Of a stretch of 24,000 bases of DNA, positions 1 through 24,000 are shown in pieces. The DNA comes from Candidatus Parcubacteria bacterium (GTDB lineage Bacteria > Patescibacteriota > Minisyncoccia > Phycocordibacterales > GCA-2747955). How positions within the stretch are numbered: position 1 is the stretch's first letter; each line of letters opens with the position of its first letter. The stretch lies in contig JALVSO010000054.1 of the NCBI GenBank assembly GCA_027024305.1, forward strand, positions 1 to 24,000. The letters are read 5' to 3'. A program made the translations under genes and the position numbers. The notes under the pieces were generated by a model. It was not told the DNA's origin and ran no database searches. It saw only the letters and a program-made list of their open reading frames with translations.

Positions 1-1
1 T

Positions 2-343
2 GCTTATACTGGCTCTACCACCACCCAAAACACCACCTTTGAAGAGTTACTCAAAATGGTTAAAGAAGATTGTTATCAATTTCAAACAGGAAGTAAAGAA
101 ATAAAAGAAAAAGGAATAATCTGATCATATTCAAAAGCGGAAAGTAAAGAAGAAATAGAAAAAAGAAAAAAAGAAAGAGAAGAGAGAATAAGAAAAGAAA
201 AAGAAGCATGAGAAAAACTGTCGCCGGAAGAAAAGGAAAGAATAAAAAGAGAAGCGGAAGAGGAAAGCAAAAAAATAGAAGAATATAGAAAACTATCCGA
301 TGAGGAAAAACTAAAAATTTTAAGAAAAGAATTTGGTTATTAA
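2..343 (+). CDS. 3' end of a hypothetical protein with a Lys/Glu-rich tail; 5' end lies outside the window
   Basis: Frame 2 is open from the window edge to TAA at 341-343 if the two in-frame TGA codons (122-124, 209-211) are read as Trp, as elsewhere in the window. A perfect terminator hairpin follows. The 106-aa and 62-aa minus-strand track ORFs here are poly-Phe/Leu antisense shadows of this purine-rich strand. Confidence 0.5.
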
Positions 344-405
344 ACACTCCCAAAATTTCCAAAAAAAAAACAAACCCCAATCCTCAACACTCCAAACACC
401 CTCCC

Positions 406-442
406 AACACCAAGGCAAGACCTTGGTGTTGCTTCCTTTTTT
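406..442 (+). terminator. Rho-independent terminator
   Basis: Perfect 10-bp stem AACACCAAGG (406-415) / CCTTGGTGTT (421-430), 5-nt loop, then GCTTCCTTTTTT. Confidence 0.7.
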
Positions 443-451
443 AGAGTTTGA

Positions 452-838
452 GGGATCTTAGATTGTAATTTGAACCCGAGACTTTTCTTTTCCACTATTT
501 TTTATAATCTGGATCCCGGATAACTAAGTTTTTCATCCATTCGTTCCTCATGGGAAAAACTTATTTCCGGGATGACACGGGCATTGTCGTCCCGGAATTT
601 TATGAGCACCACTTTTGTAGGAATAAAAAGGTTTTAAAATTTTAGTTCCTGAAATTGCAAAAAGTTCAGTTTCGGCTAAATATTTTTTCAAAAGTGGTGC
701 TCGGTCATCCCGGAATGGAATTTTACCCACGAGGAACGAGTGGCTGTAAAATTCCAATATCCGGGATCCAGGGTAATAAATTAAAATCAGCTTTTAAACA
801 GTTGGAATTCTCGGGTTCAACTTACAATCTAAGATCTT
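452..838. repeat. About 386-bp imperfect palindrome (MITE-like element or large hairpin RNA)
   Basis: Nested inverted-repeat blocks: 454-480 with 810-836 (27 bp, 1 mismatch); 511-520 with 760-769 (10/10); 537-554 with 726-743 (16/18, both differences transitions); 565-576 with 704-715 (12/12); 604-617 with 689-702 (14/14). No credible ORF; the 69-aa and 61-aa track ORFs run across the arms. Confidence 0.6.
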
Positions 839-860
839 AAATGCAAAAGATTTTACTCTG

Positions 861-869
861 TGCTATAAT
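861..869 (+). promoter_or_regulatory. Extended -10 promoter element (TGCTATAAT) for tig
   Basis: TGnTATAAT match ends 9 nt before the tig ATG at 879. No Shine-Dalgarno sequence lies between them. Confidence 0.45.
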
Positions 870-878: not shown

Positions 879-1922
879 ATGAAATTTAAAACAGAAGTTG
901 AAAGAAAGAAAAATTCCATTGTTGAGGTTAAGGTAAAAATGGATTTTTCCGAGGTGGAAAAAAGAAAGGAAGTGGTTTTGGAAAAGTTGGCCGGTGAGGT
1001 GGAAGTGGAAGGGTTTAGAAAAGGTAAAGCACCCAAGGATGTGGTAGAGAAGAAGTTGGGAGAAGAAAGAATTTTGCAGGAAGCTTCCCAGGAAGTCATC
1101 AATGAGGTTTTTCCGGAGATTTTGAAAAAAGAAAAAATTCAAATCATCGGTTATCCCTCCATCACCGTAACCAAGCTGGCTCCCGGCAATGATTTTGAAT
1201 TTAGCGCCGAGATGGCCGTTTATCCGGAAGTTAAATTGCCTGATTATAAAAAGATAGCCAAAAGCATTAAAAAGGAGGTTAGGAAGGTTGGAAAGGAAGA
1301 TATTGAGAAGGTGGAGAAAAATCTCATTGATATGCAAAATCATATGGCTCAAAATCATGAGCACAGGGAAGGTGAGAAATGCGACCATGAACATAAGGAG
1401 GTTAAAGAATTGACCGATGATTTTGTAAAACAACTGGGCCCCTTTAAGGATGTGACCGATTTCAGAAAGAGATTGGAAGAGGATTTGAAAAAGGAAGCCG
1501 AGGCCGAGGCCGTGGCCAAGCACCGGGGAGAAATTGCCGAGGCCATTTTGAAAGAGGTTAAAATGGAAGTGCCGGAAATTTTAATTAATGCCGAACTTGA
1601 TAAAATCATCGCCCAAATGAAAGACGATATGATGAGGTCTGGTCAAGATTTTGATAAATATCTGAAAGAACAGGGAAAAACGGAAATGGATATCAGAAAC
1701 GACTATCGGGAAGAGGCCGAGAAAAGAGCCAAGATTGAAATTATTTTAAAGGAGATTGCCAAGGCTGAAAAGATTAAACCCGACGAAGAGGAGATGAAAA
1801 AGCAAGTTGATTTGATTATGAAAACCTACGGAGAAGCCAACGCGGAAAATGTAGCTCTCTATGTGGAGAATATTATGATCAATGAGGCTGTAATGAAATT
1901 TTTGGAGTCGCTGTCGGAGTAG
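879..1922 (+). CDS. tig: Trigger factor, short form lacking the FKBP/PPIase domain
   Basis: The N-terminal ribosome-binding domain carries the GFRKGKAP signature (trigger factor GFRxGxxP). The C-terminal arm-like region follows directly after a His-rich linker (NHMAQNHEHREGEKCDHEHKE). Length is 347 aa versus about 430 aa for canonical TF. Ends in TAG. Confidence 0.8.
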   Translation: MKFKTEVERKKNSIVEVKVKMDFSEVEKRKEVVLEKLAGEVEVEGFRKGKAPKDVVEKKLGEERILQEASQEVINEVFPEILKKEKIQIIGYPSITVTKLAPGNDFEFSAEMAVYPEVKLPDYKKIAKSIKKEVRKVGKEDIEKVEKNLIDMQNHMAQNHEHREGEKCDHEHKEVKELTDDFVKQLGPFKDVTDFRKRLEEDLKKEAEAEAVAKHRGEIAEAILKEVKMEVPEILINAELDKIIAQMKDDMMRSGQDFDKYLKEQGKTEMDIRNDYREEAEKRAKIEIILKEIAKAEKIKPDEEEMKKQVDLIMKTYGEANAENVALYVENIMINEAVMKFLESLSE

Positions 1923-2779: not shown

Positions 2780-2807
2780 AAAACCGGGCACAATGCCCGG
2801 TTTTTTT
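2780..2807 (+). terminator. Strong rho-independent terminator
   Basis: Perfect 11-bp stem AAAACCGGGCA (2780-2790) / TGCCCGGTTTT (2794-2804), loop CAA, T7 run. Confidence 0.8.
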
Positions 2808-2808
2808 A

Positions 2809-2817
2809 TGTTAAAAT
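2809..2817 (+). promoter_or_regulatory. Extended -10 element TGTTAAAAT for recJ (leaderless-type spacing)
   Basis: TGnTAAAAT ends 7 nt before the recJ ATG at 2825. Same architecture as at 4666, 6149, 15349 and 19468. Confidence 0.45.
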
Positions 2818-2824: not shown

Positions 2825-4606
2825 ATGATTGACGCTTATTTGGCTAAAAACTATTTTGTTCATCAGAGTCTTGACGAAAAAGAAATTGAGAAAAGATACG
2901 GGAAAGATTTTAATCGGCTGTTGGCCAATTTATTGTATGCCCGGGGAATTAAAAATAAAAAAGAGGCTGAAAAGTTTTTAAATCCTCGCTGGGAAGAAAA
3001 TCATAATCCTTTTCTTTTTAATGATATGGAGAAGGCCGTGGAAAGAATTTTAAAGGCCGTTAAAAATCAAGAGAAAATTTTAATCTATTCTGACTATGAT
3101 ACCGACGGCATTCCCGGCGGAGCCCTTTTACATAATTTTTTTAAAAAAATAGGCTATGAGAATTTTGCCAACTACATTCCCAACCGAAATCGGGACGGCT
3201 ACGGACTGACCGAGAAGGCGGCCGAGAAAATTGTCCGGGGCGAAATTTTTAAAAATTCTCTTTTCGGGGAAGAGTTGGAAGGGGAGAATTTCAATCCGGA
3301 TTTGGTTATCACCATTGATTGCGGTATCAGTGATATTGAGGCTTCCAAGATTTTAAAAAAGGAAAAAGTGGATTTGATTGTAACCGACCACCATCTGCCG
3401 GGAGAAAAACTGCCGGAGGCTCTGGCCATTTTAAATCATAAGGTTACGGGGGAAAAATATCCCGATAAAAATCTTTGCGGAGCCGGAGTGATTTTTAAAC
3501 TGGTTCAGGCCTTGGTGGAGAGAATTAAAAAAGAAAAAGAATTTGAAATTAAAGAGGGCTGGGAAAAATGACTTCTGGATCTGGTGGCCATATCCACTGT
3601 CTGCGATATGGTGCCCTTGTTGGGAGAAAATAGAATTTTTGTGAAATACGGCCAAATTGTTTTTAAAAATACCCATCGGGAGGGCTTAAACCGTTTGATG
3701 GAAAAGGCTCGTTTAGATAAGAAAAATATTTCCGCCGGGGATTTGGGCTTTATGGTCGGCCCTCGTTTAAATGCCGCTTCCCGCTTGGATGATCCGGTGG
3801 TGGCTTTCAAAACCTTGGCCGAGGAAGGAGAAGAAGCCGTTTTTTCAGCCGAGGAATTGGAGAGGTTGAATAATCGGCGGAAATATCTAACGGCCAAAAT
3901 AATGAAGGAGGTTTATAAAAAACTTTCCCAAAGGGATTTGAAAGAGGTTATTGTTATCGGCAATAGGGATTGACCTCTGGGGGTTTTGGGTCTCATCGCC
4001 GGTAAGGTTGCCGATAAATACCAACGGCCAACTTTTGTCTGATCACAAGCGGAGGGGGAAGAGAAAATTTTAAAAGGCTCCTGTCGCTCCGGAGGAAAAT
4101 ATGATATTCATTCTTTGATGACTGAGGCTTCCGAAGAATTTTTGGGTTTTGGTGGCCATAAAGCTTCCGGAGGTTTTGAAATAAAAGAAGAGAAAATTCA
4201 TTTTTTGGAAGAAAAATTGACGGAGGCTTTGGAGAATACAAAATTGGCCGAAAAGGAAAAAATTATCATTGATGCGGAAATAGGTTTGGACGATGTAACC
4301 TTGGAAAATTATCATGAAATAGAAAAACTGGAACCCTACGGCATGGCCAATCAGAAACCCCATTTCTTTTTTCGGGGAGTGGAAGTTTTTTCGGTAAATT
4401 TTTTCGGCAAGGAGAAAAGCCATCTGGAATTGATTTTTAAAAATTCCCGCAATTTTTCCATTAAAGCCATCGCCTTTTCTTTCCACGACCTTTTGGGAGA
4501 TATCAATTTTTCAGCCGGGGATAGAATAAATTTGGTGGCTTCTTTTGAATTAAATCGCTGAAACGGAGCGGAAAGCTTGAGATTAAAAATTGAGGATATT
4601 TTTTAA
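2825..4606 (+). CDS. recJ: Single-stranded-DNA-specific exonuclease RecJ (593 aa with UGA=Trp)
   Basis: Three same-frame track fragments (2825-3571, 3584-3973, 4115-4561) join through TGA codons at 3569, 3971, 4040 and 4559. DHH motifs are present: YSDYDTDGIPGG, ITIDCG, VTDHH, GGHKASGG. The TGA at 3971 gives GNRDW-PLGVLGLIAGKV, matching the RecJ W-x-GV-GI-A pattern. True stop is TAA at 4604-4606. Confidence 0.9.
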
Positions 4607-4682: not shown

Positions 4683-6098
4683 ATGAAGAAAGAGCGTTTT
4701 TTAAATCTTGGTTTAAAAATATTTTTCCTGGGGGTGATTTTTTTGCTGTCTTTTTCCGTTTTTTACTTTTCTGTCCGAGCGGAAGAATTGAAATGTAGTG
4801 ACTACGGAAAAAAAGTTATGTCCCAGGAGGACTATGACAAAATTATTGAAATCTGTGATAGAGAGATTGCCGCCGATAAGGCCGCCCTGAAAAAGAGCGA
4901 GGGAGAAGCCAATGGTATCGCGGCCGAAATTCAGCGTTTGGACCGGGAGATTAAGATTTCCCAAGCTTATATTAACAAAAAGACCGCCAGAGCCAATCGC
5001 CTAAAGAGGGATATAAAATCAACCATTGCCGATATCAAAGAATTGAGTGATCGTCTTGAAACAATCAATCAAACTTTAAAAGACTTACTTTTTCAGAGAA
5101 ACCAGGTAGAAGGCAATACGGCTCTGGAAGCTCTTTTGTCAAAAAAGACCCTTTCGGAATTTTTTGATGATTTAAATACTTCTTCATATTTAGAGAAAAA
5201 GATTTCTCAGGAGGTTAGAGAAATAAAAAAGAAGAAGGAGGATTTGGAAAAGTTGATTATTGAGTTGGAAGAAAGGGAATCGGTGGAAAGGCAATTGGCC
5301 CGGGAAAAGCAAATTGAATATCAAAAAATAGCCAGGAATAAAAAGTATAAAAATGAGCTTCTGGGTATTAAAAAGAAAGAAACCGGCTTTTTGAAGAAAA
5401 GAATTATTGATAAAGAAAAGGCTAAGCAAGCTATTTTAAGGAAAAAGTTTACGGTGGCTTCCGGAGAGAAGGTGACCTTTGGAGAAGCTTTTAATATTAT
5501 TAATCCCTATAAAAGGCAGCTTGGCATGGATCCGGCTTTTGTCTTGGCTATTCTCTTCCAAGAATCCGGCTGGAGCGGAAAAATAGGGGGGAATATAGGT
5601 CAATGTACCTATAATCAAAAAAACCCTTGTGGAAAAAACAGAGTTATGTCCGAGTCCCAGGTTCCCAGTTTTTTGGAAATAATGAAGGGCCTGGGCGGCG
5701 ACCCCAATATTCAGAAAGTTTCTTGTCCGATCTGTAAAGATGGTTCCTATGGGGGTGCCATGGGGCCGGCTCAGTTTATGCCAAAGACTTGAATGGGCAT
5801 AAGGGCTTCGGCGGCCAAAATAATTGGAAAAGATCCGGAAAAAATGTCACCCTTTACCAACCATGATGCCTTTATCGCCGCCGGGGCATATTTGAAAAAT
5901 CAGTACTATTCAAAGTCTTGTACGGATTATGCTAATAAATATAAACATATTTCGTCGGTTAGGACATTGAGAGAGAGATGTGCCGCCGCTCGCTACTACG
6001 CCGGAGGGAATTGGTTTAAGTACCGAATGACCTATGGTGAATCGGTGGTTAAACGGGCAGATAGATTTAGGGCCGATATTGTTACCTTGGAATCATAG
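4683..6098 (+). CDS. Secreted or membrane-anchored coiled-coil protein with a C-terminal lytic-transglycosylase-like domain (471 aa)
   Basis: Track ORFs 4683-5792 and 5793-6098 share a frame and join at TGA 5790-5792. This yields GAMGPAQFMPKTW, the classic Q-F-M-P-x-T-W lytic murein transglycosylase motif, with FQESGW upstream as the candidate catalytic Glu. There is an N-terminal hydrophobic segment and a long heptad-rich region. Ends in TAG. Confidence 0.8.
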
Positions 6099-6163: not shown

Positions 6164-7183
6164 ATGAATAATAATGAAATCATTTCCCAGGCTTTGTATA
6201 GGAAATACAGGCCGTCAAATTTTTCGGAGGTGTTGGGCCAGGAAGAGGTGGTTAATTCTTTGAAAAATTCCATTGAAAATGGACGCATTGCCCATGCCTA
6301 TCTTTTTTCCGGAGGGCGGGGTAGCGGTAAAACTTCCATCGCCAGAATTTTTGCTAGGGAGTTGGGAGTTCAGAATGATGATATCTATGAAATTGATGCC
6401 GCCTCCAATCGGGGTATTGAGCAAATCAGAGAGTTGAGAAATTCGGTGGAGATTCTGCCCATGGCTTCCGATTATAAAGTTTATATTATAGACGAAGCCC
6501 ATATGTTGACCAAGGAAGCTTTTAATGCTCTTTTGAAGACTCTGGAAGAGCCTCCCAAGCATGTTATCTTTATTCTGGCCACCACTGAAAAGCATAAAGT
6601 TTTGGACACCATTCTTTCTCGTTGCCAGGTTTTCGATTTTAAAAAAGCCAAGGTGGAAACCTTGATTAAGTTGATAGAGAGCGTGACGGAAAAGGAAGGG
6701 ATTGAAATTGATCAAAAATCCAAGGAGCATATTGCTACTTTGGGTAACGGCTCTTTCCGGGATACTTTGAGTCAGTTGCAAAAAGCCATTTCCATTTTCG
6801 GTTCAAAAATAGATTTTGAGACCCTGCAAAAAGAATTTCTGCCGGAAGACAATGATTTGCTTTTGGAGTTTTTGGATTTGTTGGGACAAGGAAAGAAAGA
6901 AGAGCTTTTAAAAAACTATCTTAAAATCTTAGAGAAAGATTTGGATTTGGATAATTTTTTGGAGAAACTTTTGGAAAAAGCCCGAGCCATTCTTTTGATT
7001 AAAAATTCTCCGGATTTTGAAAAATACTATAGAGAAATTCTGGCGGAAGATGAATTGAAAAGAATGAAAGAAAATAATAGTCTGAACTCTCTACATCTGA
7101 AAAAGATTTTGGAAATGATTGATTTGGCTAAAAAATCCGAAAAGCCGGAGTTGGCCATGGAAATATTTTTAATGGAATTATAG
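6164..7183 (+). CDS. dnaX: DNA polymerase III subunit gamma/tau, short form (339 aa)
   Basis: YRKYRP...F..V.GQ, Walker A GGRGSGKTS, DEAHML, SRC sensor motif. The Zn-finger segment between the Walker A region and the EIDAAS motif is absent. Ends in TAG. Confidence 0.9.
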   Translation: MNNNEIISQALYRKYRPSNFSEVLGQEEVVNSLKNSIENGRIAHAYLFSGGRGSGKTSIARIFARELGVQNDDIYEIDAASNRGIEQIRELRNSVEILPMASDYKVYIIDEAHMLTKEAFNALLKTLEEPPKHVIFILATTEKHKVLDTILSRCQVFDFKKAKVETLIKLIESVTEKEGIEIDQKSKEHIATLGNGSFRDTLSQLQKAISIFGSKIDFETLQKEFLPEDNDLLLEFLDLLGQGKKEELLKNYLKILEKDLDLDNFLEKLLEKARAILLIKNSPDFEKYYREILAEDELKRMKENNSLNSLHLKKILEMIDLAKKSEKPELAMEIFLMEL

Positions 7184-7797
7184 TGAAATATCAAAGATTA
7201 GAAAAAAGCAATTTAGACTTAATTAAAAAAGATAATTCTTTTTTGGATATTTTTTTGCATTTAGCTGAATTAAAGAATACTCTTAGAACTGGTTGGATGA
7301 AATATCACAATTTGGATAAGAGATACGGGGAGAGTGTGGCTGACCATTCTTTTTCCATGGCTACCTTATCATATATTTTGGCCAAAGAATTAAAATTAAA
7401 TTTAGACTATGGCAAGGTTTTAAAAATGGCTCTTTTCCATGAGTTGGGGGAAATTTATCTGGGAGATTTGGTTTCCTGTAAAAATAGAGATTTGAGCCGG
7501 GAAGAAAAAGAAAAAAAGGAAATGGATGCCTTGGATAAATTTTTAGCTTTTCTGGGAGATGAGAGCAAAGGAGAGTTGAAAGATTTATATGAAGAATTTG
7601 AAAAAAGCAAAAGCCCCGAAGCTCGTTTTGTTAAAAGCATGGATCAGCTGGAAGCCGCTTTCCAAGCCTGACTCTATAAAAAAAGAAACTTAGTGGGGGA
7701 GTCGGTTTTAGAATTTAAAGAATATGCTTTAAAAGTGGCCAAAGAAAATGAGGAAGTGGGGCTGATAAAAATTTTGGAAAATTTGGATTTTTCTTAA
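7183..7797 (+). CDS. HD-domain phosphohydrolase, YfbR/HDDC2-like 5'-deoxynucleotidase family (204 aa)
   Basis: GTG start overlaps the dnaX TAG by 1 nt. Motifs LRTGW, ESVADHS and HELGEIYLGD are present. The track ORF stops at TGA 7669-7671; read as Trp, the frame continues to TAA at 7795-7797. Confidence 0.7.
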
Positions 7798-8257: not shown

Positions 8258-8692
8258 ATGCTAATCGGAGAATATAGACATTCCATAGATAAAAAGGGAA
8301 GGACAGCCTTGCCGGCCAAGTTTAAGAAAGAGATGGGCAAGGTGGTTTATATTGCTCGAGGTTTGGATGGGATGATAGATGTCTACACCAAGGATTCCTG
8401 GGATCGTTTACAGGAGAAATTATCTCAACTGCCGATGACCGTTGAGGCCAATCGAAAGTTTAAGAGGTTTATCCTTGGGGCATCATCGGAAGTGGTGCCG
8501 GATAAGCAGGGAAGGGTTATTATTCCTCAAGCTCTTAAAGAGCATGCCGGCATTGAAGCCGATGAAAAAGTTGTTTGAACCGGAGTGGGTGACAAGGCGG
8601 AAATCTGATCGGAAAAGAAATGGGATAGGCAAAACAGCGAAGGGGTGGAAAACATTGCCGAGATTGCCAAGTCCCTGGACGGAATTATCTAA
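8258..8692 (+). CDS. mraZ: Transcriptional regulator MraZ (144 aa)
   Basis: Both SpoVT/AbrB-like halves are present (DKKGRTALPAKF and DKQGRVIIPQAL). TGA at 8576 and 8606 read as Trp gives ...VVWTGVGDKAEIWSEKKW..., the conserved MraZ C-terminal E-I-W. Ends in TAA at 8690-8692. Confidence 0.9.
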
Positions 8693-8693
8693 T

Positions 8694-9608
8694 ATGTCTA
8701 TGAAAACCAACTCATCAGTTCATCAGCCCGTTCTTTTACAAGAAGTTTTGGAATATTTGGAGTTGAAACCCGGTTTGAAAGTTTTTGATGGAACTCTGGG
8801 GGGCGGTGGCTATGCCGAGGAAATTTGTCGAGCCATCGGTGAGGAAGGAATTTTGCTGGGAACCGATTTGGATGCTCACGCCCTGGGAAGAGTTGAAGAG
8901 CGACTGAAAAATTGTTCTTGTCAAAAAAAGTTTTATCTAAAAAACTATTCGGAGATTAAAAAAATTCTCGCCGAGGATAAGGAGGTTTCGGAAATTGACA
9001 GAATGGTCTTGGATCTGGGCATCAGCTCCGATCAGTTGGACTTGGAAAATCGGGGAATTTCTTTTCAAAATCCGGATGCTCCTCTGGATATGAATCTTTC
9101 TCTGGATGAGAAAAAATTAACCGCTGAAGAAATTTTGAACCGGTGGTCCGAGGAGAGCTTGGCCGATATATTTTTCTACTACGGCGGGGAAAGGGCTTCC
9201 AGAAAAATAGCCAAGGCTGCGGTGGAAAGAAGAAAAGAAAAAGCATTTAAGAGGGTGGGTGATTTGGTGGAATTGATTGAAAAGGAAATCGGTCATTTCT
9301 ATAAAAATAAAAAAATTCATCCGGCTACCAAAATTTTTCAGGCTCTGAGAATTACGGTCAATGATGAAATCGGCCATTTGGAAAAAGCTTTGAAAGAGGG
9401 TTTTGAGGTTCTGGGTTCCGGTGGAATTGTGGTTGTGGTCACCTTTCATTCCCTGGAAGACCGAAAGGTTAAGAAAATTTTTAGAGAATTTGAAGGAGGG
9501 GGTTTGGGTAGGAGAGTTAATAAAAAGGTTATCACTCCCGGAGAGGAAGAGCTTGCTCAAAACAGAAGGGCTCGTTCGGCCAAATTGAGAGCTTTCAAGA
9601 AAAATTAG
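8694..9608 (+). CDS. rsmH: 16S rRNA (cytosine1402-N4)-methyltransferase RsmH (304 aa)
   Basis: Starts MSMKTNSSVHQPVLLQEVLEYL (H-x-PVLL signature), then DGTLGGGGY, DLGISS and TFHSLEDR. The track ORF start at 8442 is an upstream read-through overlapping mraZ and is not used. Confidence 0.9.
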   Translation: MSMKTNSSVHQPVLLQEVLEYLELKPGLKVFDGTLGGGGYAEEICRAIGEEGILLGTDLDAHALGRVEERLKNCSCQKKFYLKNYSEIKKILAEDKEVSEIDRMVLDLGISSDQLDLENRGISFQNPDAPLDMNLSLDEKKLTAEEILNRWSEESLADIFFYYGGERASRKIAKAAVERRKEKAFKRVGDLVELIEKEIGHFYKNKKIHPATKIFQALRITVNDEIGHLEKALKEGFEVLGSGGIVVVVTFHSLEDRKVKKIFREFEGGGLGRRVNKKVITPGEEELAQNRRARSAKLRAFKKN

Positions 9609-9631
9609 GGAAAAAATTAAAGATAAATAAT

Positions 9632-9961
9632 ATGCAAAGTTTAAGAATAAACAGCAGAATAAGGAAATTAAATCTCTTCCTTTTGAAGAGGGAAAGACTG
9701 GTTTATTATTCTCTATCTTTGACTTTATTATTTTTGATTTTTTCCTATGCCTTCTTGGTAGCCGCTTCAGTTTCTTTGGGATATGGCATAGAGAGCAATA
9801 ATGATCGTTTAGAGAGAATTTTAGCGGAAAATTCTCAGAGGGAGCTGGAATATTATCTGGCTCAGAATAATATTGAAAAAAAGTATGCTGAGGGGTTGGT
9901 TTTGGCCAAAAATATAGACTATATTGATTCTGTTTTCAATCGGGTTGTGTATAATAAGTAA
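9632..9961 (+). CDS. Small single-pass membrane protein in the FtsL position after rsmH
   Basis: 109 aa with one hydrophobic helix (LVYYSLSLTLLFLIFSYAFLVAASV) followed by a short coiled segment. The call rests on synteny with mraZ-rsmH only. Confidence 0.5.
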   Translation: MQSLRINSRIRKLNLFLLKRERLVYYSLSLTLLFLIFSYAFLVAASVSLGYGIESNNDRLERILAENSQRELEYYLAQNNIEKKYAEGLVLAKNIDYIDSVFNRVVYNK

Positions 9962-9993: not shown

Positions 9994-10860
9994 ATGGAGA
10001 ATTTTTTTTGATTGGATGTCTTTTTTATCTTTTTTTTGGGGGCTATTTTTGGATCTTTTTTGAATGTTTTGGCAGCCGAGCTGGAGCCTCTGGTTTTTTT
10101 TAATAGAGAAGAAAGAATAAAAAAGAAAATCAAATCATTTTGGAAAAGAATAAATCGCAGATCCCGCTGCCCCCACTGCGCCCATAAACTGAGAGAAGGG
10201 GAGTTGGTTCCGATTTTTTCGTGACTTTTTCTCGGGGGAAGGTGTAAAAAATGCGGAAAAAAGATATCCCCCGGATATTTTTTAGTGGAATTTTTTAGCG
10301 GACTGACTTTTTTGGGTTTTGCCTATCATTTTTACAGTTTAAAGGGCTCAGAGCTCAATCTTTTTAATTGATGGGAGTTTTATTTTTTTGTTCCCATAAT
10401 TTCTTCTTTAATCCTTATCTTTCTTTTTGATTTGAAACACAAGATAATACCTGATTTAATTATTCTTCCAACCATTATTTATTCTCTATTCTATATTGCT
10501 TTTGATTTTAATTCTTTGACTTTTGATTTTTCCCATTGACTTGATGATATTTGAAGGTCTATTCTTTTTGCCCTGCCATTTTTTGCTCTCTGGTTGGTGT
10601 CAAAAGGCAGGGCCATGGGCTTTGCCGATTGAAAGTTGATCTTTCTCCTATCGCTTTTTCTGGACGGCACCATGGAGAATTTACTCTTCGTTTTCGGAGC
10701 TTTTTGGTTGGGGGCTTTCTATGCTATTCCGGCTTTAATTTTTGGAAGGTCAAAATTAAAAACAGAGGTCCCCTTTGGTCCTTTTATTATCCTATCGTTT
10801 TTCATAGTCTACTTTTTCCACCTTTCCTACGGTGATTTTATAAATATCTTTATGGTATAA
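9994..10860 (+). CDS. pilD: Prepilin peptidase / N-methyltransferase family A24 (288 aa)
   Basis: Same-frame fragments join through six TGA codons (10009, 10222, 10369, 10537, 10552, 10630). Motifs: GSFLNV, CPHCAHKL...PIFSW-LFLGGRCKKCGKKIS (Cys-rich box with S-W), FDLKHKIIPD and GFADWKL, which are the two catalytic Asp regions. Polytopic hydrophobic profile. Confidence 0.85.
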
Positions 10861-10881
10861 TCCAGAGAAGGCCTATTGTCT

Positions 10882-12131: not shown

Positions 12132-12141
12132 TAAGAAATCT

Positions 12142-12720: not shown

Positions 12721-12731
12721 TATTAAAAAGT

Positions 12732-13256
12732 ATGAATTATTTAAATAATAATAGAAAAGAAAAAGGCTTCGTTATTTTAATCGCCATCGTTATTTCGGGA
12801 CTTTTGGTTTCCATTGGAATGTTTATTGCCAATGTGGCCTACAAAGAACTTTTGCTTTCAACTTCGGCCAAGGCATCCCAAAAAGCTTTTTTTGTGGCCG
12901 ATTCGGTTATGGAGTGTGCCATGAGGCATGATATTAGGAAGGCTGGTTTTTGGGTCACAGATTCAGATAGCCAGAGCCGAGATTTTATATGTAATAATAT
13001 GACCTTTCAACCCCACGCAACAAGTACCGGCGGCTCTGACTGATATACTTCCATATATTATATTTCTTTTGCCGAGGATGGTGACGGGGACGGAGAAATC
13101 AGTTCGGCTGAGATGGATGCCGACCCCAATGCCGGTTATGCCAAATTAATTGTTCAGAAAACCAATAGTGGAGTTGACACCGTTATGAAAGCCTATGGTC
13201 ATGACAGGTATAAAGGAAAAGGTATCGTAGAGAGGGCTATACAGGTAAAGTACTAG
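12732..13256 (+). CDS. PilX-like minor pilin / pilus-associated protein (174 aa)
   Basis: N-terminus RKEKGFVILIAIVISGLLVSIGMFI, a hydrophobic prepilin-like helix lacking Glu5 as in PilX-type proteins. TGA at 13041 read as Trp extends the ORF to TAG at 13254-13256. Confidence 0.6.
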
Positions 13257-13268: not shown

Positions 13269-15296
<2,028 letters not shown>

Positions 15297-15363: not shown

Positions 15364-16071
15364 ATGAAATTTAACAGGAAAGTAAAATCCATTGGGATTA
15401 TTATTGACGGTAACCGGAGGTGGGCCGTTAAAAATGGAATGAAAAAAACCGAGGGACATAAATACGGCTTGGACAACCTCCTAAAAACCATAGATTGAGC
15501 TGAAGAATTGGGCATTGAAGAGATCACTTTTTATATTTTTTCCACGGAAAATTGGAAGAGAACAAAGACGGAAGTCAACGCTTTAATGGCCCTTTTTGAA
15601 AAAACTATTAAAGAGCAGTTTGCTCGCCTGGGAGAGAAAGGGGTTGAGATAAAATTTATCGGTGATTTAAAGATGTTTCCCAAAAAGTTGCAAAAACTAA
15701 TCGCCGAGCTGGAAGAAAAAACAAAATCCACAAAGAAAAAAAATAAAATTAAAGTTTTTTTGGCCGCTTCCTATGGTGGTAGAAATGAAATTATCAATGG
15801 AATCAAAAAACTTTCTCGTGAGTTGAGCAAAAAAGAAATTGAAAAATTAACGGAAAAAGATTTTGAAAAATATCTTTACTCCGGGGTGATTTCCGATCCG
15901 GAAATAATCATTCGCACCGGCGGGGACACTCGTCTTTCCAATTTTTTAATGTGGAAGTCGGCCTATTCGGAATTGATTTTTTTAAAAAAAGCCTGACCGG
16001 ATTTTAGAAAAAGTGATTTGAGAAAGGTATTGAAAAAATATCAAGAAGCTCGTTTGCAGAAGGGAAAATAA
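15364..16071 (+). CDS. uppS: Undecaprenyl-diphosphate synthase (235 aa)
   Basis: Motifs IIIDGNRRWA, GH.YG, FSTENWKRT, RTGGDTRLSNFLMW and, after TGA 15994 read as Trp, the conserved WPDF. A second TGA at 15496 gives DW-AEELG. The start lies upstream of the track ORF (15508). Ends in TAA at 16069-16071. Confidence 0.9.
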
Positions 16072-16150: not shown

Positions 16151-16915
16151 ATGTTAAGCATTAAAAGTGAGAATAAGAAAAAAGAGATAGAAGTTATTTT
16201 TGAAAATGATAATTTTTTGGCGGTCAATAAACCGAAAAATCTTTTGGTCCATGGGGATGGGCGAAGTGAGGAATGAACCTTGGCCGATTGGATTTTGGAA
16301 AAATATCCACAGCTGGAAGGGGTGGGGGAAGATATTTTTATCAATGAAAAGACCACCATCAAAAGACCGGGTATTGTTCATCGTCTGGACAAGGACACCA
16401 CCGGAGTTATTCTCATCGCTAAAAATCAGGATATGTTTTATCACCTTAAAGAACAGTTTAAAAATAGAAAGACAGAAAAGAATTATAGAGCTTTTGTCTA
16501 CGGGGCCGTTAAGTTTGACCAAAAGACCATCAGGACGATTTTTGGTCGGTCAAAAAATGATTTTCGCCGATGAACAGCCAATAAAAATGCCATTAGGGGT
16601 GATGAGCGAGAAGCGGAAACTTTCTATAAACTGATTAAAAAAAATAATGATTTTTCTTATCTGGATATTTTCCCCAAAACCGGACGAACCCATCAGATTC
16701 GGGTTCATATGCAATATGATGACCACCCCATTGTAGCCGATCATCTATATGCCGGCAAAAGATTTGACCGGGAAGATCCGGAAGCCAATCTTTTTTTTGA
16801 GAGTCAGGCTCTCCACGCCTATAAAATTAAATTTCAAGATTTGGGTGGCGAGACTGTGGAAATTACAGCTCCGGTTCCGAAAGCTTTTGAGAGGGCTTTA
16901 AAGATAATTTTATAA
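16151..16915 (+). CDS. RluA-family pseudouridine synthase (254 aa), no S4 domain
   Basis: HRLDKDTTGVILIAKN (catalytic Asp motif) and GRTHQIRVH. Same-frame fragments join through TGA at 16274 and 16571. Ends in TAA. Confidence 0.85.
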
Positions 16916-16974: not shown

Positions 16975-16977
16975 AAA

Positions 16978-17247: not shown

Positions 17248-17291
17248 ATCAACAAAAAATCCCCGGACAGGATTTTTTGTGATTTTTTTTG

Positions 17292-17365
17292 TGGACCTGA
17301 CAGGACTCGAACCTGCCACCCCCTGCTTGCAAAGCAGGTGCTCTAGCCAGATGAGCTACAGGCCC
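17292..17365 (-). tRNA. tRNA-Ala (anticodon UGC)
   Basis: The reverse complement reads GGGCCTGTAGCTCATCTGGCTAGAGCACCTGCTTTGCAAGCAGGGGGTGGCAGGTTCGAGTCCTGTCAGGTCCA. It folds as a cloverleaf with anticodon loop TTTGCAA (TGC), the G3:U70 Ala identity pair, T-loop TTCGAGT and discriminator A. CCA is not encoded. Confidence 0.9.
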
Positions 17366-17565: not shown

Positions 17566-18534
17566 ATGACAATAATCAAACAGAAGAAACAGAGAGTCGC
17601 TATTTTTATAGATGCTCAAAATCTTTATCATTCGGCCAAATCAGCCTACGGAGCCAATGTCAATTTTAAAAATATTTTAGAAGATACCTTGGCCGGTCGA
17701 GAACTGGTTCGGGCCATCGCCTATGTTATCAAAACGGAAAGCGGAGAAGAAAAAAATTTCTTTGATGCTTTGGAAAAATCCGGCATAGAAACCAAGTCAA
17801 AAGATTTGCAGGTTTTTTTGGGCGGGGCTAAAAAAGGTGATTGGGATGTGGGTATGACCGTTGATGCCATTAGGATGGCTCCCAAGGTTGATGCGGTGGT
17901 TATCGTTTCCGGCGATGGTGATTTCATTCCTCTGGTTGAATATTTGAAATTCAGCTCCGGTTGCCAGGTGGAGGCTGCCACATTTAGATCATCGGCTTCT
18001 TCGGGGCTTGTGGAAGTGGTTGATGATTTTTTTGATCTTTCTGAAAATCTTGGCCGCTATTTAATGAAGGGTAGTAGGGTCGGACGTTTTAGATACAGTG
18101 GTAGGACTAGATTGTTATCGGAAAAAGGCATTTCCATAAAAGACCCTAAGCCGCCGGAAATTGGAGGCGAGATGGAAGAGGAGAGCCCCGAAATGATTGC
18201 CGAAAGGGTGGCGGCTAAAAGAGGTCTGTCTTCCGGTATCAAAAGGCCTTTGGTTAAAAAAAGAAATAGTAAGGCCACCGAGGTTGAAATAACCAGGATT
18301 AAAAAAGAAGATTTTGTTGAAAAAGAGATAGAGCAAGCTTTGGTTGAAGACAAAAAAGGCCCTGAACAGCAGAGTGAAAAGAAAAAGGAGAGTAAAATTA
18401 CTTCGGAAAAAAAGAAAAGGGCTCCGGCTAAAAAAGAGAAGAAGGATTCTAAAGAAAAAATAAAGTTGGCCGTTAAAAAGGCCGTAGTTAAAAAGGAAAA
18501 AAAAGAGGTTCCCAAAAAAAAGAAAGCAAAGTAA
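17566..18534 (+). CDS. NYN/LabA-like (DUF88) domain protein with a long Lys/Glu-rich C-terminal tail (322 aa)
   Basis: VAIFIDAQNLY...KKGDWDVGMTVDA...VVIVSGDGDFIPLV fits the NYN/LabA Asp-rich nuclease-fold pattern. The C-terminal ~150 aa is low-complexity and K/E-rich. Ends in TAA. Confidence 0.75.
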   Translation: MTIIKQKKQRVAIFIDAQNLYHSAKSAYGANVNFKNILEDTLAGRELVRAIAYVIKTESGEEKNFFDALEKSGIETKSKDLQVFLGGAKKGDWDVGMTVDAIRMAPKVDAVVIVSGDGDFIPLVEYLKFSSGCQVEAATFRSSASSGLVEVVDDFFDLSENLGRYLMKGSRVGRFRYSGRTRLLSEKGISIKDPKPPEIGGEMEEESPEMIAERVAAKRGLSSGIKRPLVKKRNSKATEVEITRIKKEDFVEKEIEQALVEDKKGPEQQSEKKKESKITSEKKKRAPAKKEKKDSKEKIKLAVKKAVVKKEKKEVPKKKKAK

Positions 18535-18697: not shown

Positions 18698-18844
18698 GTC
18701 CGCGTACTGGTACGTGGACAGTGGCTGTAACTCAAGAACTTAAAAAACCTAAAGAAAAATATAGTCCGGCGTACCAGCACGCTGACGGATGGTTATAGCT
18801 AAAAAAGACTGAAAAAATGTAGTTCAGCGTACCAGTACGCGGAC
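18698..18844. repeat. Three GC-rich imperfect palindromes in about 60-nt tandem units (REP/BIME-like or small structured RNAs)
   Basis: GTCCGCGTACTGGTACGTGGAC (18698-18719), GTCCGGCGTACCAGCACGCTGAC (18764-18786) and GTTCAGCGTACCAGTACGCGGAC (18822-18844). Each is preceded by an A-rich tract and followed by a related (A/G)G.GG.T.TA.C tail. They lie between convergent genes. Confidence 0.6.
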
Positions 18845-18900
18845 GAAAGTCTTAACAATCTGTTTTCTGAATGGAAAAAAGAAATAAAAAAAAGAAATAA

Positions 18901-19482: not shown

Positions 19483-22400
19483 ATGAATAAAGATGAAAAA
19501 GAAAGTCGGGATGGAATGCTGTCCTGCGATGCCAAGAATGATTTTCTTGGCTCTGAAAAAAGTGAAGAAGTGGAGGAATTTCCTTTAAGTAAAAATGCTC
19601 AAGAGGAAAGGGAGATTTTGAATTTTTGAAATGAGAACAATATTTTTAAAAAATCCATAGAAAATAGAAATGATGCTCCGGAATTTATTTTCTACGATGG
19701 CCCTCCTTTTGCTACGGGGTTGCCTCACTATGGCCATCTTTTGGCCGGGACCATTAAGGATGTCATTCCTCGCTATAAAACCATGCGTGGCTATCGGGTG
19801 CCCAGAAGTTGGGGTTGAGATTGTCATGGTTTACCCGTGGAGAATATGATTGAAAAAGAGTTGGGTCTTAATTCTCGCAAGGAGATTGAGGAATACGGCA
19901 TAGATAAATTCAATAAAAAATGCCGAGACTCGGTTTTGAGGTATGATAGAGAGTGAAAGAAAATAGTTCCCAGGACCGGCCGTTGGGTTGATATGGAACA
20001 TCCCTATAAAACCATGGACTCCACCTACACCGAATCTCTTTGGTGGGCTTTTTCAGAATTGAATAAAAAAGGTTTGGTTTCTAGGGATTTTAAACCTATG
20101 CATATTTGCCCTCGCTGTGAAACCACTCTTTCAAATAACGAGGTTTCTGAAGGTTATAAAGATATAAAAGATTTATCGGTTATTGCTGAATTTAGATTGC
20201 TTGATGAGCCGGAAACCTTTGTTTTGGCCTGAACCACCACTCCCTGGACTTTGCCCGGCAATGTGGCTTTGGCCGTGGGGGAAGATATTGACTATGTCAA
20301 AATAGAAAAGGAAAATCAGAATGGTGAGGGTAAGGTTAGATTTATTCTGGCCAAGGAACTTTTGGAGAAGATTTTTCCAAAAGAGGAAAATGACTATGAA
20401 ATAGTGGAGGAATTTAAAGGTGAAAAATTGATTGGTAAAAGCTATGAACCGCTTTTTGATTACTATGCCAAGAAAGATGATTTAAAAAATAAAGAAAACG
20501 GTTGGAAAATTTACGGGGCTGATTTTGTGACCACCGATTCCGGAACCGGCATTGTTCACATCGCTCCGGCCTTTGGAGAAGATGATTTGCTTTTGGGTCA
20601 GAAATATAATTTACCCTGGGTTCAGCATGTGAACATAGATGGAAAATTTAAAGATGAGGTAAGCGATTTTGCCGGCATGGCCGTGAGAAAAAAAGAATTT
20701 CATGAAGAGGCTGATATTGAAATTATTAAATGATTGGCGGAAAAAGGAAAATTATTTTCCAAGGAAAAATATGAACACTCCTATCCCCACTGTTGGCGCT
20801 GTGATACTCCGCTTTTAAATTATGCCACTTCTTCCTGGTTTATCAATTCACCGAAAATAAAGAATGAATTGGTGGCTGAAAATAAAAAGATTTCCTGGGT
20901 GCCGGATCATATCGGAACCAAGCGTTTTCATAATTGGTTGGAGAACACCAAAGATTGAGCCGTTTCTCGCTCTCGCTATTGGGGAGCTCCTTTACCGATT
21001 TGAGAAAATAAAGAAAGTGGAGACTATGTTGTTTTAGGTTCTTTGGAAGAGTTGAAAGAAAAAACCAGATCCGATAATCAATTTATTTTTCTGCGCCATG
21101 GAGAGTCGGAGTCCAATGTGGAGAATATGATTTCTTCGGTACCGGGTCAATATGGGGATAGGCTAACCCAAAAAGGACGAGAGCAGGTGCGAAAAGTAAA
21201 AGATGAATTGAAAGGTGTTGATTTAATTTTCGTTTCGCCTTTCAATAGAACCAAAGAAACGGCCGAGATTGTTGCCGATGGACGGGAGGTCATAGAAGAT
21301 GAAAGATTGAAGGAAATTTTTGCCGGAGATAAGAATGGAAAAAGCTATGATAAATACAGCACCAGTGAATTTGAAGAAAAACCGGAAGATGTTCGTCGAA
21401 GGGTTATGGATTTTATCTTTGAAATAGATAAAAAATATAGGGGAAAGAAAATTTTAATTGTTTCCCATGGCCTGGTTGGTTCAATTTTGATGAGTGTTGA
21501 GGACAGAGATGAGAATGTTCAAAATGCCGTGGTTTATAATTTTGATTTTGCTCCATTCCCCCACGACGATAATTATCAATTGGATTTTCACAGACCCTAT
21601 ATTGACCAAATAACCTTTGAAGAGAATGGTAAAAAATACGAATTTGTTAAAGAGGTTTTTGATTGTTGGTTTGAGTCCGGATCCATGCCTTTTGCTTCAA
21701 GGCATTATCCTTTTGAAAATAAAGAAGTTTTTGACCCGTCAAAACATAAGGGCTTTCCGGCTGACTTTATTGCCGAGGGTCAGGATCAGACCCGTGGTTG
21801 ATTTAATACCATGTTGATTTTGTCAACGGCTCTCTTCGGTGAGACTTCCTATCGAAATGTGGTGGTTAACGGAATTGTTTTGGCCGAGGATGGAAAGAAG
21901 ATGGCTAAATCCTTAAAAAACTATCCCGATGTTAACTTTATTCTAAATAATTATACGGCCGATGCCATGAGAATGTATATGCTTTCTTCACCGGCCGTGC
22001 GAGCGGGAGACTTGGCTTTTTCAGAGAGAGGGGTTGATGAGATAAACAAGAAAGTTATTATGAAAGTAAAGAATGTCCTAACTTTCTACGAGCTTTACAA
22101 AAACGAATTGACCGAGGAAGTCAAAGCCAGGGATTCAAAAAACATTTTGGATCAATGAATTTTGGAAAGGACCAAAAAATTACTTTCCACGGTTAGCCAA
22201 GCCTTGGATAATTATGAGCTGGATGAGGCCACCAAGCCTTTTGTGGACTATGTGGATGATTTTTCAACTTGATATATCAGAAGGTCTCGGGACAGGTTTA
22301 AGGGGATTGATTTGGAGGATAAAAATTATGCCATCGTGACAACCAGAACCGTTTTAAGAAACCTGGCTAAAATTATTGCTCCTTTTGCTCCATTTTTGGC

Positions 22401-23067
22401 TGATTATCTTTGGTTAAGGTTGAGAAGGGAGGGAGATCAGGAATCGGTCCATTTGGAAAAATGGCCGGAATTGAAGGAGGGCTTGCTGGAAAGATTTTTG
22501 GGCAAGAAAAATGATATTTTGGATGGAATGGCTTTGGTTCGGGAGATTGTTTCTTTGGCCATGGAAGCCAGGGTTTCGGCTGGCTTGAAGGTTAGACAGC
22601 CTTTGGCATCCATGTTGGTTATCGGTTCGGTGGAAGATTTGGATGAGGAATACAAAGAAATTATCGCCGATGAATTGAATATCAAGAAGGTTTACCTTGA
22701 AAAGGATTTGGAAAAAATTGATAGGGAGAAGTATGATAGTTTTAATTTTGAGGAGATTGACAGGGGTGAAAACCGGAAAATAATGGTTTTGTTGGATAAA
22801 AATTTAACTCCGGAGCTGAAAAAGGAAGGTGATTTTCGGGAGTTTTTGCGCCAGATTCAGATTATGAGAAAGAAAGCCGGATTGCAGGTGGATGATATGG
22901 TGGAAATTAAAGTGGATTTGCAGGGGGCCGATAGAGACTTCATTGAGGATAATTTGGACGAACTTCAGAGAGTGGCCGGAGTGAAAAAAGTCAACTATGG
23001 TGAAATCGACGGAGAGGACGAGGTAAAAGTTAATGATAAAAAAATAAAGCTGGTTCTAATTGATTAG
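19483..23067 (+). CDS. ileS: Isoleucine--tRNA ligase, type 2 / eukaryote-like (1194 aa) with a nested histidine-phosphatase domain
   Basis: Seven track fragments plus untracked pieces are all in frame 1 and join through 10 TGA codons (19627, 19816, 19954, 20230, 20731, 20956, 21001, 21799, 22156, 22270). Motifs: [12 protein letters not shown] (HIGH), [65 protein letters not shown] (KMSKS), [10 protein letters not shown]. Ends in TAG. Confidence 0.95.
21064..21582 (+). other. Histidine phosphatase (PGAM/CobC/SixA-like, branch 1) domain inserted in-frame in IleRS
   Basis: [12 protein letters not shown] (RHG catalytic motif), [19 protein letters not shown] and [10 protein letters not shown] (second catalytic His). 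The segment lies between the IleRS motifs ...[25 protein letters not shown] and [10 protein letters not shown], which in type 2 IleRS are, from memory, only about 10-15 residues apart. Confidence 0.75.
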
Positions 23068-23092
23068 TTTTTCTTGGGAGGTTGGAAAAAGG

Positions 23093-23113
23093 GGTGGCAC
23101 CGCAGGTGCCGCC
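23093..23113. terminator. Bidirectional terminator hairpin between convergent ileS and comFC-like genes
   Basis: GGTGGCACC / GGTGCCGCC, 9-bp stem with one G:U and a GCA loop. T-rich tracts lie on both strands (TTCTCCTTT on +, CCTTTTTCC on -). Confidence 0.65.
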
Positions 23114-23126
23114 TTCTCCTTTGGTT

Positions 23127-23759
23127 CTAATGCGCCATGGTCATAAAATAAACTTTTTTGGCACCGGCTTTCTTTAACACCTTTTTGGCTTCTTTGAGAG
23201 TGGCCCCCGTAGTTGTAACATCATCAAAAATTATAATATTTTTACCCTTGATTTTTTCAGCTTTCCTTACGACAAAGGAGTTCTTGACGTTAACTAACCT
23301 CTCTTTTCTGCTTTTGGTTTTTGATTGGGCTTTGGTGTGTCTTTTTTTAACCAAAACTCCTTTTTCTCAGGAGATAAAGTTTTTTCCTCCCATTTTCATA
23401 AAATTTTCTATGATTAAATCATTTTGGTTATAACCTCTCTTAACTTTCCTTCAGAAACTAATGGGTATGGTTATGATAATGGGGTCATTGAAGTTCTCGG
23501 AGAATCTTAGAAAATCCAAAAGGTCATTTATATTTTCATAGATAATTTCCGAAAAGACTTTGGCTGACCCCGTTTGCCCACGAAACTTTAGCCTTTTTAA
23601 TTCTCTGGAAACCGATGGATTTCTGTAGGGTAAGAAGGTAATTCTTTTTTTTCCGGGAAAGATAAAATTTCTATTGGAAAGAAGTTTTTTGATTTTTACT
23701 CCGTCTTCGTTGTCTTCTCAAAAAAAGCCGATAAGTTTATAAAAGTAATTTCAAAACAT
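23127..23759 (-). CDS. comFC: ComF-family phosphoribosyltransferase-like protein (210 aa)
   Basis: The track ORF 23127-23354 (…NIIIFDDVTTTGATLKEA…, the PRTase motif) extends upstream through four in-frame TGA codons to the ATG at 23759-23757. This adds ...PISFW-RKVKRGYNQNDLI..., the ComFC R-G-[FY]-N-Q motif. Ends in TAG. Confidence 0.8.
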
Positions 23760-23799
23760 TTTTTATCTGTTATAATATGGACATAATTAAAATTTTTAA

Positions 23800-24000
23800 A
23801 TGTCTTTTCTCGATAATATCACGAAAATTTTTAATAGTAAAAATGACAACAAGGTTTTAGGCGTTGATATAGGTTCGTCTTCCATCAAGGTGGTTCAGCT
23901 CTCTTTAAAAAAAGGAGTGGCGGTTTTGGATACCTTTGGAGAAATTTCCCTGTCGGTTTATGCCGGTAAGGAAATCGGGACAACGGTTAATTTGCCCACC
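23800..24000 (+). CDS. pilM: N-terminus of a PilM-type (FtsA/actin-like) type IV pilus assembly ATPase; 3' end lies outside the window
   Basis: MSFLDNITKIFNSKNDNKVLGVDIGSSSIKVVQL... matches the G-x-D-I-G-S-x-x-I-K phosphate-1 motif at the PilM N-terminus. The frame is open to the window edge. TAAAAT ends 6 nt upstream of the ATG. It cannot be fully distinguished from FtsA on 67 aa. Confidence 0.65.
   Translation, partial: MSFLDNITKIFNSKNDNKVLGVDIGSSSIKVVQLSLKKGVAVLDTFGEISLSVYAGKEIGTTVNLPT

Follow-up and report, generated by a model that had tools for sequence, protein, structure and literature searches.

How is UGA read in the DNA of an uncultured bacterium in which TGA, and no other stop codon, repeatedly interrupts housekeeping genes? 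The question is raised by a stretch of 24,000 nt labelled Candidatus Parcubacteria bacterium (GenBank assembly GCA_027024305.1, contig JALVSO010000054.1, positions 1 to 24,000), the whole of which is referred to here as the window. We conclude, at a probability of about 0.9, that UGA is in this organism an ordinary tryptophan codon, synonymous with UGG, and that only UAA and UAG terminate translation, as in genetic code table 4. The window is very probably chromosomal DNA of an uncultured member of the Patescibacteria (candidate phyla radiation, CPR), class Minisyncoccia/Paceibacteria (Parcubacteria, near 'Campbellbacteria'), that uses this table.

In-frame TGA codons and coding structure

Under table 11, the large genes of the window appear as pieces lying in the same frame, which fuse into long open reading frames (ORFs) once TAA and TAG are the only stops. 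Counted in this way, with gene starts fixed, 44 TGA codons lie in frame within 14 coding sequences (CDSs; Table 1); the fragments that they delimit all share one frame, and the number of in-frame TAA or TAG codons is zero. The recount returns exactly the figures that a first reading of the letters (the original prediction) had put at about 44 and 14. The same-frame arrangement that it had claimed for flanking fragments is seen in every interrupted CDS, and the ten positions at which it had placed Trp-encoding TGA codons (19816, 20230, 20956, 21001, 21799, 22270, 14211, 15994, 5790 and 8606) are all TGA. Coding density also changes with the reading, in that the fraction of the window occupied by non-overlapping ORFs of 100 codons or more is 0.71 with table 11 and 0.91 with TGA as sense. 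Moreover, 21 of the 22 CDS ends are TAA or TAG, again as claimed, the lone TGA end being that of orfA (2231-2761), to which we return below.

Assembly errors or pseudogene lesions, which we group with a Mollicute or reduced insect endosymbiont source (see below) as alternatives of negligible probability, are opposed by the nature of the interruptions: these are only ever TGA and never TAA or TAG, they stand at Trp columns, and they recur in independently assembled relatives. We also considered selenocysteine, programmed read-through and derivation from a phage, and dropped all three, as the 44 sites are in housekeeping genes and all in Trp-like columns.

Residues at the TGA positions in homologues

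The isoleucyl-tRNA synthetase (IleRS) sequence, with the TGA codons translated as X, was aligned with the 120 homologues that match it best. All six TGA columns that the original prediction had named as Trp, and three of the other four, hold Trp in 120/120 homologues, and these nine sites are also Trp in the solved structures of the yeast and human enzymes; the remaining column contains Y, H, F or W. Across the 1194 columns, 20 are at least 90% Trp, and the codon in the window is TGA in nine of these and TGG in 11; by comparison, 28 columns are at least 90% Gly, and here the window has exclusively GGN codons and TGA in none (0/28). The coincidence of nine out of ten TGA codons with 20 Trp-conserved columns of 1194 cannot be chance.

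RecJ and the NAD-dependent DNA ligase LigA give a similar picture. In RecJ, the TGA columns at 3569, 3971, 4040 and 4559 contain, respectively, W in 108/120, W in 120/120, W in 120/120, and F in 87, Y in 17 and W in 16. In LigA (120 homologues), those at 13512, 13959, 14085, 14133 and 14211 contain, respectively, W in 120/120; F in 113 and W in 5; I in 51 and W in 39; W in 56 and L in 45; and F in 91, Y in 27 and W in 2. All five LigA columns are thus Trp, aromatic or large hydrophobic, and mostly W in the closest relatives. The Escherichia coli enzyme, which has L, F, L, D and W at these sites, would be misleading for two of them as the sole reference. Indeed, the near-invariant Trp that had been predicted at 14211 is seen in E. 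coli, but among the 120 closer homologues the column is aromatic in character rather than invariant. Taking IleRS, RecJ and LigA together, W is more frequent than any other residue in 14 of the 19 TGA columns, four are dominated by Phe or Tyr, one is Ile/Trp, and in none is Gly a frequent residue.

Solved structures extend the comparison to shorter proteins. For the undecaprenyl diphosphate synthase UppS there are three references; at 15994, where Trp was predicted, two of them have W and one has F, and at 15496 they have I, Y and L, and in three solved MraZ structures 8606 is Trp, as predicted, and 8576 is Leu. The transglycosylase TGA at 5790 found neither a solved-structure match nor a plasmid match with which to align it, and a tblastn search of the window proteins against related loci for extra columns returned too few homologues. 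The column evidence covers IleRS, RecJ, LigA, UppS, MraZ, the HD-domain hydrolase and the RluD-like protein.

A reading of UGA as glycine (table 25) is the textbook recoding of the CPR, being that of the Gracilibacteria and Absconditabacteria (class JAEDAM01), and the only one listed for the phylum in a review of May 2026; moreover, one TGA of the pseudouridine synthase (16274) aligns to Gly in a loop of one PDB entry. These lineages share with the window the phylum and the use of UGA as sense, and have lost release factor 2 (RF2), but they belong to another class, and the nearest relatives of the window are Minisyncoccia, not Gracilibacteria. Set against the invariant Trp columns of IleRS, the absence of TGA from its Gly-conserved columns, and the rarity of Gly in every RecJ and LigA TGA column, a glycine meaning has almost no probability left. 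By these column counts, UGA means Trp here, with Gly excluded, as had been proposed from the letters alone; a preference for Gly, or for no residue in particular, is not what the IleRS, RecJ and LigA columns display.

Host and recoded relatives

The best homologues of IleRS, RecJ and LigA are all from Patescibacteria, under the source names Campbellbacteria, Pacebacteria/Paceibacterota, Zambryskibacteria, Minisyncoccia and 'Parcubacteria group'. The gene content (SLT_2, UppS, mraZ-rsmH-ftsL, PilD, four pilins and PilM) fits a walled, piliated CPR cell. The homologues, the IleRS with its His_Phos_1 domain, and the dcw, UppS, transglycosylase and type IV pilus genes bear out the original prediction of a CPR organism rather than a Mollicute or insect endosymbiont, and the closest homologues place the window among Patescibacteria rather than inside Mycoplasmatota.

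Table 4 is, to be sure, best known from Mollicutes and endosymbionts. The Mycoplasmatales (code 4) resemble the window in that UGA and UGG both encode Trp and UAA and UAG are the sole stops, and they too have small AT-biased genomes. However, they belong to another phylum, are wall-less and have a type-1 IleRS, whereas the window carries type IV pilus genes, dcw genes, UppS and a eukaryote-like type-2 IleRS with a His_Phos insert; their reassignment is an independent event. Mycoplasma-like contigs recovered in a metagenome scan (below) encode type-1 IleRS only 28-31% identical to that of the window. With cell-wall and pilus genes present, and the best homologues all in Patescibacteria, we give a Mollicute or reduced-endosymbiont source practically no credence.

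In a neighbour-joining (NJ) tree of IleRS, the window is one of the 15 members of a clade that has 100% bootstrap, and it keeps this place with Dayhoff-6 recoding, applied to counter compositional bias. The clade includes GCA_002747955.1, the genome that gives genus GCA-2747955 its name, and at least five relatives that are recoded as judged from their own DNA (P0001, JGI 3300054975; P0005, ENA ERZ25069786; P0007, GCA_054034375.1; P0009, GCA_054047225.1; and P0011, GCA_947311625.1), the IleRS genes of which, where counted, contain 21-23 TGA as against 2-3 TGG. Loci recoded on the same criterion are L002, L005, L006, L088, L089, L090, L095, L099 and L118, of which L095 and L099 are JGI metagenome contigs. 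IleRS identities within the clade span 52-80%; L095 is 71% identical to the window over a 525-residue fragment. The closest RecJ relative (71%) is from the recoded GCA_054018215.1, and the closest LigA sequences are in P0324 (75%) and the recoded GCA_947311625.1 (74%).

GCA_002747955.1 itself (P0015/L087, contig PDQZ01000008.1) uses the standard code: in-frame TGA occurs in 0/17 genes, TGG is far above TGA, and a TGA stop is found in only 1/17 genes. It groups with the recoded GCA_054047225.1 (L089) in a four-member subclade (bootstrap 83-96%), outside which lie other recoded branches, that of the window included. Because a standard-code genome is nested among recoded ones, the change from UGA stop to Trp may not have been one clean event; we raise, tentatively and as the less probable view, that closely related genomes captured UGA several times or that there was a return to the standard code, with the window as a further, possibly independent branch and orfA perhaps a trace of residual UGA termination.

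Two scans were made for further members. A search of genome contigs with the IleRS patterns WGWD[CT]HG[LM] and AWTTTPWT, back-translated with Trp as TGG only, found 80 standard-code loci and none from the recoded clade, the TGG-only back-translation causing recoded genomes to be missed. A search of metagenomes for loci in which TGA encodes the invariant Trp of WTTTPWTLP found 26, of which only L095 and L099 are in the clade of the window; the rest are Mycoplasma-like type-1 IleRS genes or chance matches in GC-rich contigs. Two further metagenome contigs, L097 (Ga0194058_10073495; 37% GC, two such codons) and L107 (Ga0115028_10065136; 50% GC, one), carry type-2 IleRS fragments with TGA at invariant Trp positions that are 38-41% identical to the window, and may represent other recoded lineages or sequencing errors.

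In the P0008 and P0012 clusters, NCBI splits the IleRS of relatives into 'histidine phosphatase', 'class I tRNA ligase' and 'DUF5915' (MCD5396612-14), table 11 having evidently been applied to table-4 genomes in the annotation of recoded relatives. Genes split in this way in public annotation distort the number of genes counted, as well as estimates of completeness and reconstructions of metabolism.

Use of the two tryptophan codons

TGA and TGG each occur 38 times in 19 complete CDSs, together making up 1.2% of codons, which is a normal Trp content. Since the TGA share of Trp codons in the window (0.51) is similar to the A-ending share in five other NNA/NNG pairs (0.59), the two synonyms look close to mutational equilibrium, as would be expected of an old and complete reassignment. 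In at least eight related contigs of 26-31% GC, UGA is likewise Trp and accounts for 57-88% of Trp codons. In the window and most of the relatives, the TGA share follows that of NNA codons (TGA and NNA shares, respectively: L002, 0.79 and 0.83; L005, 0.88 and 0.84; L006, 0.82 and 0.83; L088, 0.81 and 0.76; L089, 0.72 and 0.74), while L090 (0.62 and 0.84) and L099 (0.57 and 0.89) trail it. A standard-code relative nearly devoid of UGA stops, AT-rich relatives with the shares just given, and the window, with about half, form a natural series for the study of stop-codon capture.

Decoding of UGA

A number of observations weigh against the reading and the placement given above. The window, at 38% GC, is richer in GC than all verified recoded relatives (26-31%). 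The placement is based on single-gene distance (NJ) trees, and the RecJ tree, which recovers the same neighbourhood, has bootstraps of only 40-70%; the IleRS is divergent, with 55% identity to GCA_002747955.1 and at most about 62% to full-length relatives. The HD hydrolase TGA (7669), an uninformative site, corresponds to Ser in human HDDC2, and both TGA codons of the RluD-like gene (16274, at which the one reference has Gly, and 16571) lie in poorly aligned loops. Genes for tRNA-Trp, with either anticodon, or for release factors were found neither in the window nor in some 40 related loci, which represent a small part of each genome. Lastly, orfA has TGA at the natural stop of its family, followed by a terminator, such that strict use of table 4 would yield a non-stop message or an in-frame orfA-RecJ fusion.

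As the window and the related loci show no tRNA-Trp or release-factor gene, the decoding mechanism that we propose is taken from published relatives and from knowledge of code 4: UGA would be decoded by a tRNA-Trp that has the anticodon UCA and descends from tRNA-Trp(CCA), and RF2 would have been lost. The reassignment would have proceeded by codon capture, with AT pressure first stripping UGA stops from the genome, as in the standard-code relative, whereupon RF2 would become dispensable and UGA could return through TGG-to-TGA mutation. Capture under AT pressure and genome reduction is likewise the route to UGA as Trp in Hodgkinia, Zinderia, Nasuia and Stammera; these, however, are Proteobacteria with extremely reduced gene sets, and some of them decode UGA without a tRNA(UCA).

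Such decoding could also be imagined here, with a near-cognate tRNA-Trp(CCA) able to read UGA through modification of its wobble base or shortening of its anticodon stem to 4 bp, and no dedicated tRNA(UCA); we regard this as unlikely. Near-cognate decoding has reportedly been proposed for Ca. Zinderia and Stammera. UGA reading by tRNA-Trp(CCA) alone is documented in bacteria and argued for Zinderia, and a tRNA(UCA) gene is present in only 2/4 genomes of the recoded family JAKLIH01 (PMC13092985), just as it went unseen in every related locus that we scanned. However, the tRNA gaps come from incomplete metagenome-assembled genomes (MAGs), our loci are small samples of each genome, and tRNA-Trp(UCA) is reported in the majority of recoded Minisyncoccia genomes (10.64898/2026.05.24.727570); moreover, a codon that makes up half of Trp codons and occurs ten times in the essential IleRS calls for efficient cognate decoding.

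A gene that ends in TGA

The single TGA-terminated gene, orfA, is preceded by a promoter-like site (2139-2166) and a ribosome-binding site, and its terminator starts 18 nt past the TGA (2759-2761). An exhaustive profile search found 62 homologues (~165-180 aa), the C-termini of which coincide with this TGA; RecJ homologues begin about 20 codons downstream of it, and none include orfA. From these comparisons, orfA is taken to be a self-contained gene of an uncharacterised family. Its closest traced homologue, in the complete 0.99-Mb genome of a standard-code CPR bacterium (CP060229.1), is TGA-terminated too, and adjoins Prim-Pol and terminase-like genes in a mobile-element-like region. We favour the explanation that orfA was recently acquired by horizontal transfer, which would account for both its TGA stop and its TGG-only Trp codons, and that it is now mis-terminated.

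Alternatively, UGA could have a dual meaning, Trp inside genes and stop in some contexts such as orfA, the reassignment being incomplete and RF2 or another termination route retained. The position of the orfA TGA at the family's natural stop, the terminator and promoter-like site that go with it, the encoding of all four of its Trp residues by TGG, and the TGA-TAA end of pilin gene 3 would suit such a scheme. However, it concerns one gene of 23, for which horizontal acquisition offers an explanation of stop and codon usage alike; four TGG and no TGA would arise by chance once in 16 at 50% usage, and so mean little. Furthermore, competing termination at the ten UGA codons of IleRS would make synthesis of the full-length enzyme very inefficient, and the recoded relatives are reported to be without prfB and UGA stops. 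A dual meaning is for these reasons very doubtful, and a single meaning of UGA, as Trp, is preferred. At the end of pilin gene 3 (12715-12720), TGA is directly followed by TAA; this TGA may be a former stop that now encodes a terminal Trp.

Relation to published recoding

To our knowledge, the capture of UGA by Trp was long considered to occur only in Mollicutes and in a small number of extreme endosymbionts, and we know of no CPR recoding previously recognized other than UGA as Gly. The review of May 2026 still describes recoding in the phylum as UGA-to-Gly, restricted to Gracilibacteria/JAEDAM01. However, in a paper in Nucleic Acids Research of April 2026 (PMC13092985), UGA-to-Trp was reported as a 'new independent case' for JAKLIH01, a family of order UBA6257 in class Minisyncoccia, on the evidence of 150-303 supporting Pfam columns and the absence of UGA stops and RF2; in the standard-code neighbours of JAKLIH01, UGA stops are already scarce (4-10%). 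The gTranslate preprint of May 2026 (10.64898/2026.05.24.727570) assigns table 4 to 12 JAKLIH01 genomes and ten of genus GCA-2747955, with tRNA-Trp(UCA) in most and prfB absent, and leaves three genomes of that genus with table 11.

JAKLIH01, the family of GCA_022709715.1, GCA_022705625.1, GCA_028691405.1 and GCA_028702045.1, resembles the window, by these descriptions, in showing UGA-to-Trp in a Parcubacteria-type CPR lineage; the absence of UGA stops and RF2, and the tRNA(UCA) of some genomes, are features of JAKLIH01 itself (PMC13092985), and it is reported as a lineage separate from GCA-2747955. The latter matches the window in phylum, class and UGA-to-Trp reassignment, and the 100% IleRS clade unites the window with GCA_002747955.1 and the recoded MAGs GCA_054047225.1, GCA_947311625.1 and GCA_054034375.1. 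The occurrence of a standard-code GCA_002747955.1 among recoded IleRS neighbours was found by us independently and agrees with the preprint (10.64898/2026.05.24.727570). The window differs from these relatives in its higher GC content, in a TGA share of only about half of Trp codons, and in sequence, as even the best matches reach no more than 75% for LigA, 71% for RecJ and about 62% for full-length IleRS.

Because the window groups with the genome after which a published genus is named, the recoding is no longer undescribed. The original prediction of an 'independent or undescribed' reassignment therefore stands in its first part, as the event is independent of those in Mollicutes and in the UGA-as-Gly Gracilibacteria/Absconditabacteria, and has been overtaken in its second (PMC13092985; 10.64898/2026.05.24.727570). 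The window belongs to, or adjoins, a lineage with published recoding, and is not identical to any genome traced; its contribution is a divergent member of higher GC content and one puzzling gene that ends in UGA, and not a new phenomenon. With free-standing Parcubacteria-type genomes that read UGA as Trp, Patescibacteria become the first bacterial phylum with three codes.

Gene content of the window

The window has 38% G+C, its GC skew is positive throughout, and nearly all genes are on the plus strand (Table 1).

Table 1. Features of the window, with the number and positions of in-frame TGA codons
Feature	Position	Strand	In-frame TGA	Remarks
Unidentified CDS, 3' end (5' partial ORF)	2..343	+	2: 122, 209	Ends TAA; no Pfam hit
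Trigger factor	879..1922	+	0	Pfam Trigger_N, Trigger_C; no TGG or TGA Trp codon; ends TAG
orfA, 176 codons	2231..2761	+	0 internal	4 TGG; ends TGA 2759-2761
Intrinsic terminator	2780..2811	+		Stem of 11 bp with 6 GC pairs, then a T run; folding energy -17.1 kcal/mol (z -3.35)
RecJ exonuclease	2825..4606	+	4: 3569, 3971, 4040, 4559	Pfam DHH, DHHA1, RecJ_OB; in the frame of orfA
Membrane-anchored coiled-coil protein with SLT_2 lytic transglycosylase domain	4683..6098	+	1: 5790	Pfam SLT_2
DNA polymerase III gamma/tau (DnaX)	6164..7183	+	0	No Trp codons; identical gene on Logan contig, run SRR13622960
HD-domain phosphohydrolase	7183..7797	+	1: 7669	Pfam HD_3
dcw cluster start	8258..9961	+		mraZ, rsmH, FtsL-like gene
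mraZ	8258-8692	+	2: 8576, 8606	Pfam MraZ
rsmH	8694-9608	+		Pfam Methyltransf_5
FtsL-like gene	9632-9961	+		In dcw cluster start
Type IV pilus genes	9994..13256	+		Pfam A24_N_bact, Peptidase_A24, N_methyl
Prepilin peptidase PilD	9994-10860	+	6: 10009, 10222, 10369, 10537, 10552, 10630
Pilin-like gene 1	10882-11562	+	1: 11365
Pilin-like gene 2	11553-12131	+
Pilin-like gene 3	12142-12720	+	3: 12334, 12658, 12715
Pilin-like gene 4	12732-13256	+	1: 13041
LigA, NAD-dependent DNA ligase	13269..15296	+	5: 13512, 13959, 14085, 14133, 14211	675 aa
UppS, undecaprenyl diphosphate synthase	15364..16071	+	2: 15496, 15994
RluA/RluD-family pseudouridine synthase	16151..16915	+	2: 16274, 16571	Pfam PseudoU_synth_2
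tRNA-Ala(UGC)	17291..17365	-		Sole tRNA gene in the window
NYN-domain protein	17566..18534	+	0	Lys-rich tail; one TGG
ORF, 139 codons	18932-19351	-		In gap upstream of IleRS
IleRS, type 2	19483..23067	+	10: 19627, 19816, 19954, 20230, 20731, 20956, 21001, 21799, 22156, 22270	1194 aa; His_Phos_1 insert ~21070-21580; 15 TGG
ComF-like phosphoribosyltransferase	23127..23759	-	4: 23753, 23720, 23453, 23369 (first bases, plus-strand coordinates)	Pfam Pribosyltran
pilM, 5' end	23800..24000	+		Weak Pfam PilM_2; synteny with L002

Exact-protein look-ups found two short Logan contigs of run SRR13622960 that are 100% identical to the window, and no record for its trigger factor; an exact search of metagenome contigs with the 49 nt at the 5' end of the window gave zero matches, and a mention of the run was not found in the literature.

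Rfam detects the tRNA-Ala alone in the window, and has no match within the gap at 18.5-19.5 kb. In the AT-rich intergenic part of this gap (18697-18845), a GC-rich motif of 18-19 nt, CGTCCGCGTACTGGTACG, occurs once and its reverse complement twice, 58 nt apart; the region is predicted to form an extended hairpin, ~160 nt in length (-60 kcal/mol, z -7), for which Rfam gives no match and of which none of the related loci contains a copy. In GCA_002747955.1, a tmRNA gene (L087, 9483-9882) immediately precedes IleRS; the corresponding gap of the window holds the minus-strand ORF and the hairpin, and a tmRNA was not detected there.

The order IleRS, Pribosyltran (minus strand), PilM is the same in the window and its relative L002. 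Within IleRS itself, a histidine phosphatase domain (PF00300; RHG...SHG) is inserted into the catalytic core at residues ~530-700. Since all 120 of the best IleRS homologues carry PF00300, this insert is a Parcubacteria-wide feature.

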